A stretch of 64,000 nucleotides of DNA from Leptolyngbyaceae cyanobacterium (GTDB taxonomy: Bacteria; Cyanobacteriota; Cyanobacteriia; Phormidesmidales; Phormidesmidaceae). The stretch is taken from assembly GCA_965263355.1 (NCBI GenBank), contig CBDHHL010000032.1, positions 3,648,001-3,712,000 on the forward strand. The letters are read 5' to 3'. The notes under the pieces were generated by a model that saw nothing but the letters and a program-made list of their open reading frames with translations, was not told the origin of the DNA and ran no database searches. The position numbers were made by a program, and so were the translations under genes. Of the stretch, positions 5,994 through 64,000 are shown piece after piece. Position 1 is the stretch's first letter, and each line of letters begins with the position of its first letter.

Positions 5994-6144
5994 CGCTAAA
6001 TTGATTTTTGTTTCAGTAATTGTCCGTAGCCACTAATCAGGATATGTAGATATTAGGGAAACCAAATCATTATTAGATGTGTCTTTTGACTGTGCATCCC
6101 CGTAATTTTTACTAGTTTTTTGTCGTTCATAGTACAAGACAGTC

Positions 6145-7332
6145 ATGTCTCACTGGGGTTCCTCGTCTGCACTCAAGCGCTTCCAGGTAGGCGAAGTCAT
6201 TTTCTCTGAGGGTGATCCTGGAGATTCAGCCTACATCATTGAGTCAGGCAGGGTGGAAGTTGCTGTTAGTGTTGATGGTCGACCGTTACCGTTGCGGATT
6301 CTAACCAGCGGTGATGTTTTAGGTGAAATGGCGGTCATGGATACGGCTCCCCGTTCTGCCTCGGCCAAAGCGATTGAAGAGACGGTGTGTGTGGCTATTT
6401 CCAGCCGTCAAATTTCAGAACGTATTCAAGGGGCAGACCCCATCGTGCAGCTTTTGGTGACTACCCTACTGCATCGGATACGCAGTACCCCCCAGATCAC
6501 CTTATCGGGGCATCCCAAAGTAGCGACGGGGCTGCAATATGCGGCGGAAAACGATGAGGTTCTGGACAAAATGCGTTTGGAATCGGAATTGCGAGCGGCC
6601 TTAGAGAATCGACAACTGCGCCCCCACTACCAGCCCTTGGTGGACATTCAAACCCGGCAAGTGTTGGGATTTGAAGCCTTGATTCGATGGCGGAGCGATA
6701 CTCGTGGTAACGTGTCGCCTGGGGAATTCACCAGCATTGCTGAGGAAACGTCGCTGATTATTCCGATTGGTCAGCAGACGCTACAGCAAGCCTGTCGTGA
6801 TTTGGTGCAATTTCAGCAGGCTTGCCCAGATAGGCCTTTGTTTATGAGTATTAATGTGGCCCCACGGCAGCTAGCTGAATATACGTTTTTGCCAGAGTTG
6901 CGAGCCATTGTCCAGCACCATGGCCTAGCGCCTTACCAGGTTAAGCTTGAGGTAACAGAGCGAGTCTTTATGGCAGATCCGGTTGCCTTAGAAATGTTAA
7001 AACACTGTCGGCAGGACGGTTTCCATATTGCCTTGGATGATTTTGGTACCGGCTTTTCGAGTCTTAACTATCTGACTCGTTTTGAAGTGGATGGCTTTAA
7101 AATTGATCGAGCCTTTGTCCAAGAACTGCTGACGAATTCACGGACTCAAGTCTTGTTGCAAAGCATGCTAGCGATGGCCCATGGCTTAGGCATGCAAACG
7201 GTGGTGGAAGGTATTGAAACGGAGGAGCAGCTGAAGGTTTTACAGCAGTCTGGGTGTGATATTGGCCAGGGATACCTGTTTGGGAAGCCGCTGCCTTTTG
7301 ATGAGGTACAGCAGTTACTGGAGTTGGCTTAA
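6145..7332 (+). CDS. Cyclic-nucleotide-binding domain + EAL phosphodiesterase
   Basis: IFSEGDPGD...GEMAVMDTAPRSASA (cNMP); FEALIRW, LEVTE, DDFGTGFSSL, KIDRAF, EGIET, QGYLFGKP (EAL). Confidence 0.92.
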   Translation: MSHWGSSSALKRFQVGEVIFSEGDPGDSAYIIESGRVEVAVSVDGRPLPLRILTSGDVLGEMAVMDTAPRSASAKAIEETVCVAISSRQISERIQGADPIVQLLVTTLLHRIRSTPQITLSGHPKVATGLQYAAENDEVLDKMRLESELRAALENRQLRPHYQPLVDIQTRQVLGFEALIRWRSDTRGNVSPGEFTSIAEETSLIIPIGQQTLQQACRDLVQFQQACPDRPLFMSINVAPRQLAEYTFLPELRAIVQHHGLAPYQVKLEVTERVFMADPVALEMLKHCRQDGFHIALDDFGTGFSSLNYLTRFEVDGFKIDRAFVQELLTNSRTQVLLQSMLAMAHGLGMQTVVEGIETEEQLKVLQQSGCDIGQGYLFGKPLPFDEVQQLLELA

Positions 7333-12524: not shown

Positions 12525-12597
12525 TAAACCATGTCCAAGTTGAAGCCTGTAGATTCTTCACCGGAAAAACTTCAGTTCTAGATGTGGACAAGGTTTA
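12525..12597 (+). repeat. 73-bp dispersed element family A (near consensus)
   Basis: TAAACCATGTCCAAGTTGAAGCCTGTAGATTCTTCACCGGAAAAACTTCAGTTCTAGATGTGGACAAGGTTTA. Confidence 0.92.
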
Positions 12598-12645
12598 GAT
12601 TCTGTACCCATAGTTTAGATTCTGTACCCATAGATTTATAGTCCT

Positions 12646-39832: not shown

Positions 39833-40735
39833 CTAAATGCCAGGACGAGCCAAAGATGGCAGACTGCTAATTGTGGAAACAGCCTCTGTTGAAGGTTCTT
39901 CTTCTTCAACTGGTTCGTCTGCGGCGGTCACCAGACGTTCTACCTCAATACCGTTCTCAACCAAAATTACTCGCGGTTCTATTGACCCCGTATCAATGCG
40001 CTTGACAAAGACGCTACCACCAGCAATTCTTTCACCTTGTCTGACATAGCGTTCTATTTCGTTCGGTGCTTTAACAATGGCATAAGGAGATCCACCAATT
40101 TGGATCACACCTGATACCCTAACAGCCCTAGCAGTGGTGGGCTGAGGAATTTCAGGTAATACTGCTATTTCCGGAGGTGCCGACTCGACCTGACGTTCTG
40201 ATATGCTCGGGCGTCCCTCTTCAGTGCCACCAGCGTTTCTTGATGAGCCTGCTGGCACTGTACTTCCTCGGGTTAATGTCCTCGGGGAGGCTGGGCCAGA
40301 AGCAGCGTTGTTACTGCTAGCTCTAACGTTATTACTGCTGGCCCTAACGTTATTATTGCTAGCCCTTACCGCTTCTGGAACTTCGATCGGTTCAGGAGGA
40401 ATTAGAGGAATTGTTAATTCTGCAAAGGGATCATTGCGAGTCCGCTCTACCCCAATAGCCCTTTCATTTGGATCGGTAGACTGAATTAAATCGCGGGCAA
40501 TGATCGTAGGAGAATTTTCTGAGATTGAAACTATACCATCTGAATCTTCTCCCTCAGGGATATCAGGGAGCTTCCCTTCCGATTTTTTTATCGGTTGAGT
40601 AATTGGCTCAGTTGAGGGAGCTGGATCTTCAGCAACATCGGTGTTGCGATTAAAGAACCCACAACCGCTCAGGGAAATTGCCCCAGTTGTTATTAGCAAT
40701 ACCAAGAGCAGACGCTGCATCTTTCCATCCTCCAA
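39833..40735 (-). CDS. Lipoprotein with a PilP/GspC-like C-terminal domain (tentative)
   Basis: Lipobox LSGC, RNDPF, long low-complexity linker, VRVSGVIQIGGSPYAIV...YVRQGERI. Confidence 0.65.
   Translation of the reverse strand: MEDGKMQRLLLVLLITTGAISLSGCGFFNRNTDVAEDPAPSTEPITQPIKKSEGKLPDIPEGEDSDGIVSISENSPTIIARDLIQSTDPNERAIGVERTRNDPFAELTIPLIPPEPIEVPEAVRASNNNVRASSNNVRASSNNAASGPASPRTLTRGSTVPAGSSRNAGGTEEGRPSISERQVESAPPEIAVLPEIPQPTTARAVRVSGVIQIGGSPYAIVKAPNEIERYVRQGERIAGGSVFVKRIDTGSIEPRVILVENGIEVERLVTAADEPVEEEEPSTEAVSTISSLPSLARPGI
40307..40369 (-). repeat. 3 x 21-bp coding tandem repeat (VRAS[NS]NN)
   Basis: Units at 40307, 40328, 40349 inside the lipoprotein linker. Confidence 0.9.
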
Positions 40736-57282: not shown

Positions 57283-58134
57283 ATGCCTACACCCCGCGAA
57301 ATTTTAGAGGCCCTATTGCCTAGTCTGAAAATAGCCGCAGGCTATGCCCAGAAAATTCAGACCAGTATTGCGGCCCATCCCGATAAGTTTGACTCCGAAA
57401 ATTTCTTTGCGACAGCCTTGACCGATGCCGATCTTTCCATTCAAACGTTTATTGAAGTAACTCTACTGTCACTCTTTCCTGATATTCGTTTCTATGGTGA
57501 AGAGTTTGAGAAAACCTACAACACTAAATATTTTCGCTCCATTGAACTAGGCCCCCAGGATGACTATCTGGTCACCCTCGACCCCATCGACGGTACCCGG
57601 TTTTATATGGATGGTCATCCCAACTATCAGATTATTCTTACCGTTCTCAATGCAGATAGTTTTGAAGCGGTGATTGCCCTCAGTCCGGCGCTGGATCGGT
57701 TTTATTACAGCCTGCGCGGGCAAGGCACCTTTTACGGCACCCTAGCCGATAACCTGGATAGCTGCCAACCCTTAAAAATAGAGACGCCCAAGGATCAAGT
57801 ATTGTTGAGCTGGGCGCTGACCCATCTGGCCGATGCTTTGCAGGGACAATTTGAAACAATTTGTGTCAAGACTGACTATTCCCGAGAAGTTGCGATTCCA
57901 AATACCAATGGTTTGTTAACGGGGGACTTGACCGGAGTGATTTTGGCAGCGGGGCAATTTATTGATGGCGCTGCCCTTAGCTGGATGGCTCAGGAAATGG
58001 GCTATATCATCACCGATCATCAGGGCAATCCGCTGCCTGCGCTGAGTGAGTGTGAAGACTATAAGTGGCCAGGTATTGTGGTGGGCTCATCGCCAGAGGT
58101 ACACCAAAAACTTTTGGCGGTGTTTTTGCAGTAA
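57283..58134 (+). CDS. Inositol monophosphatase family protein
   Basis: TDADL, YGEE, LDPIDGT; ATG 57283 preferred. Confidence 0.88.
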   Translation: MPTPREILEALLPSLKIAAGYAQKIQTSIAAHPDKFDSENFFATALTDADLSIQTFIEVTLLSLFPDIRFYGEEFEKTYNTKYFRSIELGPQDDYLVTLDPIDGTRFYMDGHPNYQIILTVLNADSFEAVIALSPALDRFYYSLRGQGTFYGTLADNLDSCQPLKIETPKDQVLLSWALTHLADALQGQFETICVKTDYSREVAIPNTNGLLTGDLTGVILAAGQFIDGAALSWMAQEMGYIITDHQGNPLPALSECEDYKWPGIVVGSSPEVHQKLLAVFLQ

Positions 58135-58310
58135 TCCGACGTAATCGCTAAAACCTGGTTATAGGCGTAGACCTATCCATACGCTATCAAAATTTTCATT
58201 AACCCCGATTAACAGGACAATCCTGTACGGGGGCAGTAAGGGGCAATCCCTTGTGGATGCCCTGCTGATATCGGCTATCCACAAGGATTTCGTATCGGTT
58301 CGATAGATTC

Positions 58311-58331
58311 GTAGGGTGGGCATGACCCACC
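58311..58331 (+). repeat. GTAG-type REP-like palindrome
   Basis: GTAG GGTGGG CATGA CCCACC. Confidence 0.7.
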
Positions 58332-58338
58332 ATTCTAA

Positions 58339-58737
58339 TTAATCGTCCTTAGGAAACTTACATTTCACCTCGACCTCAAAGTTGCTCTCAGCTGAGCCGT
58401 TAACCAGCACCGGGACATTCGCACCACCGCTAAACTTGAGCCCAAACTTAAAATTCAGTTCTTCCACCTCTGCACCGCCCATATTTTTAAACGCATCAAT
58501 CACAAACCTGGCGTAGGTGCTAATGGTGCCATTGATTTCTCGCAGTTTGACCAACGTTTCTTTAGCAACGGTGGAGCGAGGTTGACTACCGTAAGATTCA
58601 TCGTCGTCCCAAAGGGTACCATCGCGTTTGGCATCTTTTTTAGGGGCACTGGGCACAACATCATCATCGGTTTGAATATAAACGGTATATTCGGCACCGG
58701 ACTCGTCTTGGACCACATAGGGTTGAATTTTGCTCAT
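58339..58737 (-). CDS. Trypco1 / CU044_2847-like protein
   Basis: C-terminal pattern EVEELNFKFGLKFSGGANVPVLVNGSAESNFEVEVK matches my recollection of the family; needs an HMM check. Confidence 0.75.
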   Translation of the reverse strand: MSKIQPYVVQDESGAEYTVYIQTDDDVVPSAPKKDAKRDGTLWDDDESYGSQPRSTVAKETLVKLREINGTISTYARFVIDAFKNMGGAEVEELNFKFGLKFSGGANVPVLVNGSAESNFEVEVKCKFPKDD

Positions 58738-58845
58738 GGGGGGAATTAGGAAATTGCTAGATAATCAGACCGGATCGGGAATGTTCGCTATGGTATTTGG
58801 AGAAATTGATAGATACGTTGAACCTTAAGCCTTTGTTTGTGTGGC

Positions 58846-61800
58846 ATGGCTAAATACGCCCTGGTAATCGGTCTAACTGACTATAGTAATGACTTTAACC
58901 CGCTCACCAGACCGGCAGCGGATGCTCAGGCCGTAGCCCAGATACTACAGACCAGCGGCTATCGCATTACGCCGATTTTAGCGGCGGCAAACTACGACGA
59001 TATTGTGGCCCAGCTAAAATCGTTTTTGCAGCAGACGGCCCATAAACATGAGGCGCTGATCTACATCACGGGCCATAGCTTTCTCGTGCAAGACGACTTG
59101 ACTGACGAGCAGGCTGGCTATATTGCTACCTCTGACTGTCGGGTGCGGTACGACGGCAACGACACCATTGTGGAACAGCGCGGTGGCATTCCGTTTGTGA
59201 ACTTTAACAAGCTGATTGCCAGGGCAGAGTTAAGTAATTTGGTGCTGCTGTTGGATACCTGCCATAGTGGTGGGCTGATTGAGCAGGGGCTGTTTCAGCA
59301 GAGCTTTAGCAGCTTTGGCCAAAAGACCGACTACTTTTTTATTACCGCTGCCCGCAGTTCAGAAGCGGCCTGGGCTAAGGCGGGGGCGGAGCACAGCGTA
59401 TTTACAACGGCATTGCTGAGTGGGTTGGCAGCAGAAAATGCGCCAGAGGGTGGAGCCATTACTGGGGATGATTTGTTTGCCCATATTGTTCGGCAGGTGA
59501 AGCATGAGCAGCAGGAACCCATGCGGCTGGGCCAGGGACGGTCGATTGAGATTGTGCGCCATGGCACAGCCAAACTGAATGCCCAAGTAAGTGAAAAGAA
59601 CCCCTATCAAGGTCTAAAGGCGTTTGACGAAGACTCTAAAGCGTTCTTTTTTGGGCGAGAAAGAGAGATTGAGCTGTTGCTGGCGAAACTGAGCCAGACA
59701 AACTTTGTGCCAGTGATTGGGGTGTCGGGCAGTGGCAAGTCGTCGGTGGTGCGGGCGGGGCTGATACCGGCACTGCGGCAGATGGGCAACTGGCGAATTT
59801 TAGCGCCGATCAAGCCGGGGATAGAGCCCATGGCGATGCTGAAAAATGCATTTTGTCAGCTAGTCAGCCACAGTCGCGATGTAAACCGCATGGCGGAGTG
59901 CATTGGTGAGAAGGATTTACTGGGGGCGGTGGCGCTGCTGCCGGACAGTCTGGACACCGAAAAACTATTGCTGGTGGTGGACCAGTTTGAAGAAGTGTTT
60001 GCCCTGGGCTCGCCAACATCAGAAAAGCAGCAGTTTATTGACTGTCTAACCAAGATTGCCAGGGTAAAAGACTCGCCACTGGCCATTGTCACCACCATGC
60101 GGGCGGACTTTTTGCCAGACTGGTTGAGCTATGGGGAACTGATCGAGTCGATTCAGCAAGATGCCGTATTTCTGGGGCGGTTGCAGGGGCAGGCGCTGCT
60201 AGATGCGGTGGAAAAACCGGCCCTGGTGCAGGGGCACAGCATTGAAAACGGTCTGCTGCAGCTAATTGCCGATGACATGAAAGCAGCCAGTAATGCCCTG
60301 CCGCTGTTGGAGTTTGCACTAGAAGCGCTGTGGGATCAGCGGGATACCCAGAACCACTGTTTGACGGTGGATGCTTACACGGGGATGGACCGGCTGAAGG
60401 GAACGTTGGATAGCCAGGCGACGAAGGTGTATGACCGGTTGGCGAAGACTGAACAGAGCTGGTGCCGTCGGGTGTGTTTAAGCCTGATTCGCATAGGTAA
60501 GGACGGAAAGGATACACGGCAGCGGCAGCCCCGAGAAAAGCTGCTGGCCATGGGGCAGACCGACAGTGAAAAAGAACTGATTGACTATGTGATCGATCGG
60601 CTGGTGGGGGCACGGCTGTTGGTGACCGGTGGGGATGGACAGCAGCGCTATGTGGATATTGCCCATGAAGCGCTGATGGATGGGTGGCAGCAGTTTGCCG
60701 ACTGGCGACAGGAAAATCGAGATTTACAACGGCTGGGGCAGCGGACACGGGATGCCTATGAGGAATGGGTGGGCCATGGTAAGCATCCGGACTATTTAAT
60801 CCCTAGCGGGTTATTAGCAGAACTACGAGAGCTGGCCGGTACGGTGCGAAACGATGTGCTATTGGCTACGGACCTGCGCACGTTTTTTACCCGCAGTGAC
60901 GAACAAGATCAGCAGCAACGGGCTGCTCTAGAGAAGGCTTTAGCCGATGCTCAAATCCAGGACCGCTCCCGTAAAATTCGTGACAAGCTAATCAATTTGC
61001 CTCAGTACACCGTCGAGGCCACCCTGGAAGCCATGGACACGGTCAACGATAGCCTGGTGGCGTTTAAAGGTGAGGTAAAACACTCGGCTCAATATGCCCT
61101 TAACCAAACCTGGCAGAAAATTCTTGAACGGCTAAAGCTGGAGGGCCATAGCGGCTCGGTTTTGGCCGTGGCCTTTAGCCCCGAGGGGGATCGGATTGTC
61201 TCCGGCAGCAAACCCTGCGCCTGTGGGATCGCGAGGGCAACCCCATCGGTGACCCCCTCCAGGGCCATAGCGACTCGGTTTGGGCCGTGGCCTTTAGCCC
61301 CGAGGGGGATCGGATTGTCTCCGGCAGCGATGATAAAACCCTGCGCCTGTGGGATCGCGAGGGCAACCCCATCGGTGACCCCCTCCAGGGCCATAGCGAC
61401 TCGGTTAGGGCCGTGGCCTTTAGCCCCGAGGGGGATCGGATTGTCTCCGGCAGCGGTGATAAAACCCTGCGCCTGTGGGATCGCGAGGGCAACCCCATCG
61501 GTGAGCCCCTCCAGGGCCATAGCGACTTTTGGCCGTGGCCTTTAGCCCCGAGGGGGATCGGATTGTCTCCGGCAGCGGTGATCAAACCCTGCGCCTGTGG
61601 GATCGCGAGGGCAACCCCATCGGTGACCCCCTCCAGGGCCATAGCGGCTCGGTTTAGGGCCGTGGCCTTTAGCCCCGAGGGGGATCGGATTGTCTCCGGC
61701 AGTAATGATAAAACCCTGCGCCTGTGGGATCGCGAGGGCAACCCCATCGGTGAGCCCCTCCAGGGCCATAGCGGCTCGGTTTTGGCCGTGGCCTTTAGCC

Positions 61801-62800
61801 CCGAGGGGGATCGGATTGTCTCCGGCAGCGATTGTCTGATCAAACCCTGCGCCTGTGGGATCGCGAGGGCAACCCCATCGGTGAGCCCCTCCAGGGCCAT
61901 AGCGACTCGGTTAGGGCCGTGGCCTTTAGCCCCGAGGGGGATCGGATTGTCTCCGGCAGCGATGATAAAACCCTGCGCCTGTGGGATCGCGAGGGCAACC
62001 CCATCGGTGAGCCCCTCCAGGGCCATAGCGAGGGCCGTGGCCTTTAGCCCCGAGGGGGATCGGATTGTCTCCGGCAGCGGTGATAAAACCCTGCGCCTGT
62101 GGGATCGCGAGGGCAACCCCATCGGTGAGCCCCTCCAGGGCCATAGCGGCTCGGTTAGGGCCGTGGCCTTTAGCCCCGAGGGGGATCGGATTGTCTCCGG
62201 CAGCGGTGATCAAACCCTGCGCCTGTGGGATCGCGAGGGCAACCCCATCGGTGAGCCCCTTAGCGACTCGGTTTGGGCCGTGGCCTTTAGCCCCGAGGGG
62301 GATCGGATTGTCTCCGGCAGCCCCGAGGGGGATCGGATTGTCTCCGGCATGATCAAACCCTGCGCCTGTGGGATCGCGAGGGCAACCCCATCGGTGAGCC
62401 CCTCCAGGGCCATAGCGGCTCGGTTTTGGCCGTGGCCTTTAGCCCCGAGGGGGATCGGATTGTCTCCGGCAGCGATGATCAAACCCTGCGCCTGTGGGAT
62501 CGCATCCGCTGGCAGGACTGGCTCCACGACTGCTGCACCAAGCTGTTGCACCACAGCGACCTGGTGCGACCCAAAACTGATGTGGCGAAGCAGGCCTGTC
62601 AAGTCTGCATGGACCATGGCTGGACTCCACAGGAGCGGGCAACGTTTTTGGTGGCCCAGGGTAAGTCGCTGGCCTATTACCAGCAAGATGTGGACGGGGC
62701 AGTGGCGAAGTTTGAGGCAGCGTTGGCGATTGACGAGGCGGCGTTAGATACCGAGCCGAGGGCGCTGGCGGAGAAAATAAAGGAGTGGGCCTCTCCCTAA
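58846..62800 (+). CDS. Caspase (C14)-nSTAND1 NTPase-WD40 repeat NLR-like protein, frameshifted within the repeats as assembled
   Basis: KYALVIG, YITGHS and LDTCHSG (His/Cys dyad); NPYQGLKAF, FFGRERE, GVSGSGKSS, VVDQFEEVF, LPLLEFAL, IAHEAL; WD40 units from 61141; TPR-like tail to TAA 62800. Confidence 0.9.
61141..62503 (+). repeat. 11 tandem ~126-bp WD40-coding repeats
   Basis: Unit starts at 61141, 61260, 61386, 61512, 61634, 61761, 61892, 62018, 62136, ~62261, 62405; consensus QGHS[DG]SV[RLW]AVAFSPEGDRIVSGS[DGN]D[KQ]TLRLWDREGNPIG[DE]PL. Confidence 0.97.
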
Positions 62801-62997: not shown

Positions 62998-63316
62998 GGA
63001 TTGACCACCTGGATCTTCCCCCCTCACGAAGAGCAGGGCTACTTCATTGTCTAGACAGAAAATCTGAGGGCATTGAAAGCTCATTTGAGGAAGACATGCT
63101 CTACCTAGAGCTGGGCCAAACAACAATGCGATAACCTGATTAATCGTCCCTGCCGTAACCCTTATTTATGCAATTAAGGACAACTCAGTAGGCCGGGTTC
63201 TAGGGCGGCCTCTGGCCCTAGCCATGGGGGTTTGGGGAACTCGGAGGGACCCCAAGCAACCGGTTTTGGTTCCCGCCGGTCGTATCTCCATGATATGTGC
63301 CCATGGTAGCTATTTT

Positions 63317-64000
63317 TTATCCCTCAGGCAGTTCACCAAACCGTTGCCGATAGCGCTCTAACAAAGCCGTTTGCTCGGCCAAAACCTCCTCCGCCGTCCG
63401 ATACCGCTGCCCCTGTCGATCAAACCAATACAGCGCCTCAACCGTTTGCCCACCGTCCTGGTAAGCCCCCCGACCAATGCCCAACCCAATTTCCGGCATC
63501 CAAAACGGCTCACCCACCTGCAATCGATACTCACCGTCGATCAGCTTGTATAGCTCAAAGGGCTGCTGTCGATCCCGTTGCCAAAACTCAGGGTTATAAA
63601 CCAGATAATAAAGTACACCCAGGGTTTGATAAATACTCTTTTTCTCGTCATATTCCCCACCTGGCGTTTGGGAAACCATCTCCAACACAAAGCTGGGTGG
63701 AACATCATTTTCTTCCCACAGCACATAGCTCCGTCGAGACTTCCCCCCTTTTTTCCGCTCCACCCCCATACTCAGAAACCCATCCGGCACCACAGGCACC
63801 TTTGGACTCACCCCTGTCGTGTGGTACACCGCCATATCCACACCAAAGTACCAATCCCACCGTTCAGCCCAAATAAACTTCAAAATAAACAGCAGCAGAT
63901 TGGGCAAAAAATTCTGGTCCTCATTGTCCACAGGACTATCGTCAGAGTACGGCAGCTCTGCACTAGTGGGTAATTGTATAAGTGTGTTGGCATCGGTCAT
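63317..64000 (-). CDS. Uma2 (DUF820) family endonuclease
   Basis: LPYSDDSPVDNEDQ, VVPDGFLS, VLEMVS, EYDEK...LGVLYYLVYNP; ATG sits at the window edge. Confidence 0.93.
   Translation of the reverse strand: MTDANTLIQLPTSAELPYSDDSPVDNEDQNFLPNLLLFILKFIWAERWDWYFGVDMAVYHTTGVSPKVPVVPDGFLSMGVERKKGGKSRRSYVLWEENDVPPSFVLEMVSQTPGGEYDEKKSIYQTLGVLYYLVYNPEFWQRDRQQPFELYKLIDGEYRLQVGEPFWMPEIGLGIGRGAYQDGGQTVEALYWFDRQGQRYRTAEEVLAEQTALLERYRQRFGELPEG

Follow-up and report, generated by a model that had tools for sequence, protein, structure and literature searches.

A likely caspase-nSTAND1-WD40 death module with a homogenised sensor array and a divergent Pepco partner in a Leptolyngbyaceae cyanobacterium, and the probable artefactual origin of its array indels

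Does a tandem array of nearly identical WD40 units, found in a 64,000-nucleotide stretch of a Leptolyngbyaceae cyanobacterium genome (GenBank assembly GCA_965263355.1, contig CBDHHL010000032.1, positions 3,648,001 to 3,712,000 of the forward strand; hereafter the window), belong to a receptor that diversifies its binding face, as an initial annotation had proposed by analogy with the fungal HET-E receptors, and what are the indels that break its reading frame? Our results indicate that the array is the sensor region of a caspase-nSTAND1-WD40 gene lying head to head with a gene of the Pepco (Trypco1) family, and we consider it likely that Pepco, caspase, nSTAND1, WD40 and a C-terminal tail constitute a death module with a homogenised sensor, in which the indels are artefactual.

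By architecture, the gene corresponds to a tripartite NLR-like STAND receptor (effector, NTPase and repeat) with intact Walker motifs. Counting residues from the TTG at 58837, Pfam places Peptidase_C14 at residues 6-227 and nSTAND1 at 256-651, followed by WD40, and the predicted catalytic His80 and Cys142 of the caspase are invariant in 11 of 11 aligned homologs. The module is arranged as follows, in window coordinates:

58339..58737, reverse strand: Trypco1/Pepco gene of 132 amino acids (aa), Pfam Trypco1 E=1.3e-15, head to head with the receptor gene
58846..59517, forward strand: caspase (Peptidase_C14) effector domain, Pfam E=9.5e-16
59602..60789, forward strand: nSTAND1 NTPase, Pfam nSTAND1 E=2.3e-105, with aligned Walker A (GxSGSGKSS) and Walker B (LLVVDQFEE) motifs
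60790..61143, forward strand: linker between NTPase and propeller, kept in orthologs, frame unbroken
61144..62503, forward strand: 11 WD40 units of 126 bp (42 aa), the last one ending at WD-R
62504..62800, forward strand: conserved C-terminal tail of 98 aa

The tail shows 83% identity in the related loci L001 and L005 and 73% in L094, and is helical in the AlphaFold model of the L005 ortholog piece (helices 316-410, pLDDT 92.5); PADLOC and NCBIfam searches of its 98 aa gave no match. With the same two resources the module received no named system, the sole PADLOC match being a caspase profile, and the EACC1-type caspase model stayed below its cut-off.

The 11 units with a 126-bp period announced by the initial annotation were confirmed at 61144-62503, where their mutual identity is 97.6% (a within-gene unit identity of 0.976, taken as nucleotide identity across the first 93 bases of the unit). 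This exceeds the threshold of >85% identity among repeats across at least 100 aa by which HIC repeats are recognised (PMC4986451). A 16-mer search found no second copy of the 126-bp unit elsewhere within the window, the initial annotation having called for a search of the genome. With indel-hit codons masked, 8 bases vary per unit, giving 7 amino-acid alleles and 1 silent allele and affecting 5 of 42 residues, and the remaining 118 bases display zero substitutions across the 11 units. Unit numbering places G-H at positions 8-9, which we take to be consistent with the spacing of the selected pairs in het-d/e. So numbered, the alleles are GAC/GAG at codon 4 (3:7, D/E), GAC/GGC at codon 11 (5:5, D/G), TTG/TGG/AGG at codon 14 (3:2:3, L/W/R), AGC/AGT at codon 29 (9:1, silent), GAT/GGT/AAT at codon 30 (3:4:1, D/G/N) and AAA/CAA at codon 32 (5:5, K/Q).

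The per-codon alignment of the units proved the earlier list of substitutions right and complete, and the five allele combinations quoted with it are found in units 2, 3, 7, 9 and 11. The statement that the units are identical apart from those sites holds for substitutions but overlooked indels, which are present in 7 of 10 unit intervals. Similarly, nearly all substitutions change the amino acid (7:1 alleles), but this excess is within chance (24% of sites are silent, P=0.39), whereas the clustering is not: 6 of the 7 amino-acid alleles fall on six hotspot codons (10, 11, 12, 14, 30 and 32) of 42 (P=5e-5), namely at positions 11, 14, 30 and 32.

These six positions are shared by related proteins. 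Among 119 protein matches examined, 36 carry at least 5 units, and 27 of these have an internal identity of at least 0.7; in these 27 homologous arrays, mean within-array diversity, scored at unit positions 8-38, was highest at 30, 12, 14, 11, 32 and 10 (0.74-0.40; next 0.26). Position 12 is invariant in the window array and variable in its relatives. A metagenome scan yielded 77 mostly distant loci, which were left out of the codon counts because only 1 reached an internal identity of 0.75. The fungal het-d/e alleles are classified by sites 10, 11, 12, 14, 30, 32 and 39 (Ament-Velasquez 2025, PMC12222747), and two selected residue pairs have been described in them, one in the d-a loop and one in the b-c turn, with a conserved residue between the members of each pair (Paoletti 2007, PMC1805685); judging by spacing, these pairs would correspond to 12/14 and 30/32 of the window units. 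The R1 and D-1 hotspots of WD40 proteins (PMC3419727) equal positions 14 and 30 here.

According to DSSP of the L005 ortholog model (pLDDT 92.5), residues 10-12 lie in the loop preceding strand a; the segment separating strands b and c holds residues 30-32. The best fold matches of this model are WRAP designs and PDB entry 2YMU, a highly repetitive propeller which we take to be Npun_R6612 of Nostoc punctiforme; 2YMU is also the best solved-structure match of the array (E=6e-173) and, like the array, is variable at position 14, its own residues there being W/R/N. The modelled secondary structure, which was to be examined for the position of the variable residues, shows the variable codons at top-face positions of the predicted propeller, that is, in the d-a loop, at the start of strand a and in the b-c turn, and the proposed HET-E parallel is borne out insofar as these codons coincide with both HET-E and WD40 top-face hotspots.

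Regarding the output of the receptor, Pepco proteins (Trypco1/2) are reported as beta-barrel death effectors that are activated by a neighbouring protease and are found, frequently in cyanobacteria, alongside proteases of the serine or cysteine type (Evans 2025, bioRxiv 2025.11.14.688446), and Trypco1 had been linked to trypsin-type proteases (Kaur 2020, PMC7159879). In the window, the Pepco gene adjoins a protease whose catalytic residues are kept, and of 17 related loci that have a caspase match, 11 carry a Pepco gene in divergent orientation on the upstream side of the caspase. Furthermore, L001 retains 86% identity to the window in the NTPase, together with 42% in Pepco and 36% in the caspase (L001:5435-5922 and 6001-6690), and a 32-residue remnant of a window-type Pepco (91%) adjoins its new Pepco gene; Pepco and caspase thereby appear to have been replaced together, once, in that lineage. 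As a separate observation, P0007 looks like the reverse mosaic, a window-type caspase on another NTPase lineage. The predicted caspase-Pepco complex scored 0.01, a value that gives no verdict and is not used either way.

STAND receptors bind a ligand, oligomerise and thereby activate their effector. Following this scheme, a foreign protein, probably from a phage, would bind the top face of the propeller, the ligand-bound nSTAND1 NTPase would oligomerise and so cluster and activate the caspases, these would cleave the neighbouring Pepco, and the cleaved Pepco would permeabilise the membrane, killing the infected cell of the filament; the analogy from ligand through oligomerisation to effector draws on tested STAND systems (PMC13581612). 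The window Pepco nearly lacks a C-terminal tail, and its cut site must therefore differ from that of the tested case; a charged variable insert near its N-terminus, with a partly conserved ESYG, is a candidate site. On the sensor side, unequal recombination and conversion between the 126-bp units would keep the framework identical, and exchange would reshuffle the few surface codons kept variable by selection, as in Podospora het-d/het-e; recombination between units plus selection would suffice, and a dedicated mutator would not be needed.

This view has to accommodate the indels. In the window, the open reading frame (ORF) from 58837 exits the WD40 frame at 61209, in unit 1, and stops at 61545, and a protein collection records it as an 899-aa product from a 3.9-Mb contig. 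Between anchors, 7 of 10 intervals deviate from 126 bp (-7, -4, +1, +5, -8, -9 and +26), 6 of the 7 shifting the frame. All of the changes lie on the forward strand:

61208..61210: 7-bp deletion in codons 30-32 of unit 1, the first frameshift
61525..61531: 4-bp deletion in codons 12-14 of unit 4
61647..61658: 1-bp insertion in codon 14 of unit 5, resembling a blend of two alleles
61828..61841: 5-bp insertion in codon 30 of unit 6, copying bases just upstream
62030..62033: 8-bp deletion in codons 11-14 of unit 8
62255..62276: 9-bp in-frame deletion that loses Q-G-H of units 9/10, 6 bases off a variable site
62320..62354: 30-bp duplication with a 4-bp deletion (net +26) in codons 29-30 of unit 10

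Six of the seven touch a variable base (P=0.0007-0.0016 under random placement). Each indel occurs in one unit, whereas the common substitution alleles are each found in 2-7 units; outside the array, the unique sequence of the gene contains no frame break. The sensor frame is open in L001-L005 and broken in the window; in the four closest genomes, labelled filamentous-type marine cyanobacteria, it stays open across 3, 12, 12 and 6+8 WD40 units. Frameshifts are likewise absent from the array of G104, which lies on a 5.5-Mb contig, and from six others of 12-14 units, and a hand tally across 29 other loci, with 6 duplicates removed, counted 173 intervals, of which 5, in 3 loci, were out of frame. 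WD40 arrays with near-identical units get mis-assembled from short reads, and polishers leave most errors in repeats (PMC8812927).

Public sequencing runs were examined at the level of contigs. Three of them (X6, X7 and X8) match the window flank at 0.98-1.00, X6 matching the tail without any difference; they come from one study, possibly the window's own source, and are not independent. In contigs aligned to the last unit, the depth of the unit-to-unit joint relative to single copy is 9.4x in X6, about 13-15x in X7 and 7.1x in X8, and therefore the reads do contain a tandem array of roughly this size, the value varying among runs (7-15x). In X6, two gap-free contigs cover codons 30-32, with 0 and 1 difference from unit 11 and depths of 12.1 and 20.1, summing to 32.2 or 0.74 of the joint depth of 43.3; the expected ratio is ~0.3 with the window taken literally and ~0.6 with the three broken units repaired, which suggests more intact units than the window displays, without deciding the matter. 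The joint of the 30-bp duplication is listed in none of four runs, a weak negative given that bubbles are removed from contigs. The fourth run, X1 (share 0.21), corresponds to a relative with many differences, and X8 merges the variants at site 2; runs X2-X5, whose shares are small, carry no weight here. As a side observation, within 62476-62602, position 62602 is mixed in X7 and carries a fixed difference from the window in X8, and both runs differ from the window at one more base near the contig end, possibly in the variable codons of the last unit; these differences hint at strain variation.

Because the indels are each unique, the relatives are mostly in frame and the contig depths suggest more intact units, we regard an assembly artefact as quite likely, in which consensus or polishing of a long-contig assembly would have erred at points of conflict between misplaced reads that stem from different units. 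The possibility of a collapsed or chimeric assembly, foreseen in the initial annotation, thus holds in part, inasmuch as the indels at variable sites are probably assembly errors. The real gene is probably open, with about 1316 aa if it has 11 units, and an artefact of this kind makes the order of units unreliable; the allele order in the window, and perhaps the unit number, should not be trusted.

Several points weigh against this reading of the array and its module. The homopolymers of the unit are untouched, the G5 run being intact in 12 of 12 copies, so the indels are not homopolymer slips. The 29-locus control is imperfect, because homogeneity is lower in its long arrays (0.55-0.90) than in the window array. 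Several expected alleles are absent among the counted contig changes listed; no read was seen across any indel, contigs drop rare variants, and the case for an artefact is consequently one of pattern and of ratios at low depth (single copy 4.6x). Disruption is reported to be common among highly repetitive propellers, and possibly real (PMC9218822), and 11 units cannot fill two 7-bladed propellers; several relatives carry 14. As for the partner, 6 of the 17 caspase loci have no Pepco beside them, the Pepco gene is divergently transcribed, and across loci Pepco tracks the caspase no better than the NTPase (rho 0.63 vs 0.60); this rank correlation is not discriminating, and co-replacement therefore rests on one event. 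Moreover, activation of the characterised Pepco depends on the removal of a 2-kDa C-terminal tail by a trypsin-type protease (2025.11.14.688446), and the window Pepco has few residues past its last strand.

That the indels are real, through decay or targeted mutagenesis, we consider unlikely. The better surviving form, itself rather improbable, is a decaying young pseudogene, in which one blade was recently amplified, leaving no silent differences, and indels accrued by slippage. It agrees with the independent recent amplification proposed for highly repetitive propellers, many of which are disrupted (PMC9218822), with the frequency of inactive het-d/e alleles (PMC12222747, PMC1805685) and with a unit number that is not a multiple of 7. 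Decay would not predict indels confined to variable codons, however, and neither the 2.3 kb of unique gene sequence nor the tail is damaged. In addition, provided that the order is real, the presence of all four allele combinations at 8 of 10 site pairs of the window array does not fit a single amplification without exchange.

If the assembly is right, those four-combination pairs would suggest exchange between units. Unit identity within the gene (0.976) exceeds that across orthologous arrays (0.84 with G004, 0.84 with G001 and 0.75 with G003), and 4 silent differences are fixed between the window units and those of G004, a combination that would be expected from concerted evolution or from independent recent amplification. 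Hence a further account takes the gene as intact and the array as real, with homogeneity from recent amplification plus selection on surface codons, without ongoing shuffling, and/or a role in developmental or self-recognition signalling instead of phage defence. The fixed silent differences fit independent amplification equally well, the arrays of the orthologs G002 and G003 are diverged (0.55 and 0.72), and PADLOC matches nothing past a caspase profile; against this, mosaic allele combinations occur in the window and also in the open-frame units of G004, Pepco-protease-STAND modules act in anti-phage death, and HIC repeats are enriched in NLR-like proteins. We give this account a low probability. 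The initial idea of a receptor making new specificities by shuffling is thus upheld as regards the caspase-nSTAND1-WD40 receptor and its homogenised units, whereas this sequence offers weak evidence for shuffling, since it is precisely the variable sites that the assembly garbles.

Lower still do we place real, targeted indels, arising by error-prone processing of heteroduplex mismatches at variable codons of misaligned units, a self-reinforcing mutator of the binding face that would have left a dead allele in this lineage. Six of the seven indels touching variable bases (P about 0.001-0.002) would fit, as would junctions with 0-3 bases of microhomology and copied neighbouring sequence. In the related gene G144 (L122:12460-16809; 14 units, with Pepco divergent upstream), the array also carries four +1 insertions, 4 of 4 at codons 10-14 or 29-30; yet +1 frameshifts also occur twice in its non-repeat part, in short A/G runs within the NTPase region, as in a noisy long-read assembly, and a chlH control gene sought for it was not found. 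G144 was consequently rejected as a biological replicate and is treated as a noisy-assembly analogue. Furthermore, selection would be lost past the first frameshift, yet the constant 118 bases are unchanged and none of the indels has spread to a second unit; G104 and the six other 12-14-unit arrays are free of frameshifts, the X6 depths point toward intact units, and the missing duplication joint, though weak evidence, agrees. If true, the array would direct its own hypermutation at specificity codons without a retroelement, a new mutational mechanism, and the sensor alleles, coupled to a caspase-Pepco death switch, would differ from cell to cell within a filament and would often be dead.

Rewriting of the variable codons by a diversity-generating retroelement (DGR) is scarcely credible: an A allele occurs at 5 of the 8 variable bases and nSTAND1 sensors of multicellular bacteria are diversified by DGRs, but 16 of the 21 adenines in the reference unit, an AAC codon included, are invariant in 11 units (the rest being the variable sites), the window holds no second unit copy as template, variable repeats of DGRs lie mostly in C-type lectin domains, and no reverse transcriptase was noticed by eye among the window ORFs, where no dedicated scan was made; within the window, the array does not qualify as a DGR target.

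Returning to the homogenised receptor, its closest functional parallel is the HNWD/NWD group of Podospora anserina (het-d, het-e), a group that likewise joins a STAND NTPase to WD40 units of 126 bp (42 aa) with very high mutual identity, 11 of them conserved, which vary on the top face at positions 10-14 and 30-32 and are difficult to assemble. The window receptor differs in being bacterial, in having caspase and nSTAND1 where the fungal proteins have HET and NACHT, in its invariant position 12 and in the lack of repeat-induced point mutation (RIP); the one assembly from which the window array is read displays neither inter-gene exchange nor repeat-number polymorphism. Membership in the fungal HNWD family proper was rejected, Peptidase_C14 and nSTAND1 having been found and not HET and NACHT; the resemblance is one of working alike.

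Among prokaryotes, highly repetitive WD40 proteins with diverse hotspot sites (Hu 2017, PMC5587647) and a Nostoc propeller without silent changes, along with many disrupted propellers (Pereira and Lupas 2022, PMC9218822), have been reported. The window array resembles such WD40/WRAP propellers, for instance Npun_R6612, in its cyanobacterial origin, near-identical blades, lack of silent changes and hotspot diversity, and differs in its 42-aa unit with an NPIG(D/E)P linker, compared with 41 aa, in its fusion to caspase-nSTAND1 and in its pairing with Pepco. Bacterial NLRs with conserved WD repeats, for which reshuffling was proposed (bioRxiv 2020.01.06.895854; PMC4986451), HIC NLRs in all domains of life, nSTAND1 included (Ament-Velasquez and Saupe 2026, PMC13449251), and cyanobacterial Apaf-1-like caspase-STAND-propeller proteins (PMC13581612) are alike in architecture, taxon and proposed repeat reshuffling; the available text of bioRxiv 2020.01.06.895854, PMC13449251 and PMC13581612 gives no per-codon hypervariability map for this cyanobacterial caspase-nSTAND1-WD40 family. 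As compared with the tested Pepco-protease modules, the present one has a caspase and not a trypsin-type protease, a divergent orientation and a WD40 sensor, and its Pepco is almost without a C-terminal tail and has the charged variable insert on its N-terminal side.

The pattern of a diversifying WD40 receptor is therefore already described in bacteria, cyanobacteria included. Our literature search found no paper that describes precisely this Pepco-caspase-nSTAND1-WD40 family or indels directed at variable codons, although figures or supplements may hold one. The locus provides a clean bacterial example of the fungal het-e route to a variable receptor, with six surface positions shared by 27 cyanobacterial arrays, and its likely complete output (caspase and Pepco) makes ligand, cleavage and repeat shuffling testable within one small module. 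It is also a warning that long-contig assemblies can err exactly at the informative codons of near-identical arrays, errors that would inflate both the counts of 'decaying' propellers and apparent shuffling.

Beyond WD40 sensors, protein matches revealed the caspase-nSTAND1 core fused elsewhere to histidine kinase (PF00512/PF02518), cyclase (PF00211), GGDEF (PF00990), response regulator or pentapeptide domains, which replace WD40. As to genomic context (58134-58339 in the window), an inositol monophosphatase gene precedes the module in the window, L001, L002 and L094, the context in L004 being different; upstream of that gene, L001 and L002 have a HEAT-like ORF with no counterpart in the window ORF list. 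Downstream, 63030-63300 is a multi-copy intergenic repeat, on which many divergent contigs pile up in all four runs, and a Uma2-family gene follows just after it on the reverse strand (63317-64000). Short tandem repeats occur in the window at 12593-12638 (20 bp, 2.2 copies) and, within an ORF, at 40306-40366 (21 bp, 2.9 copies).

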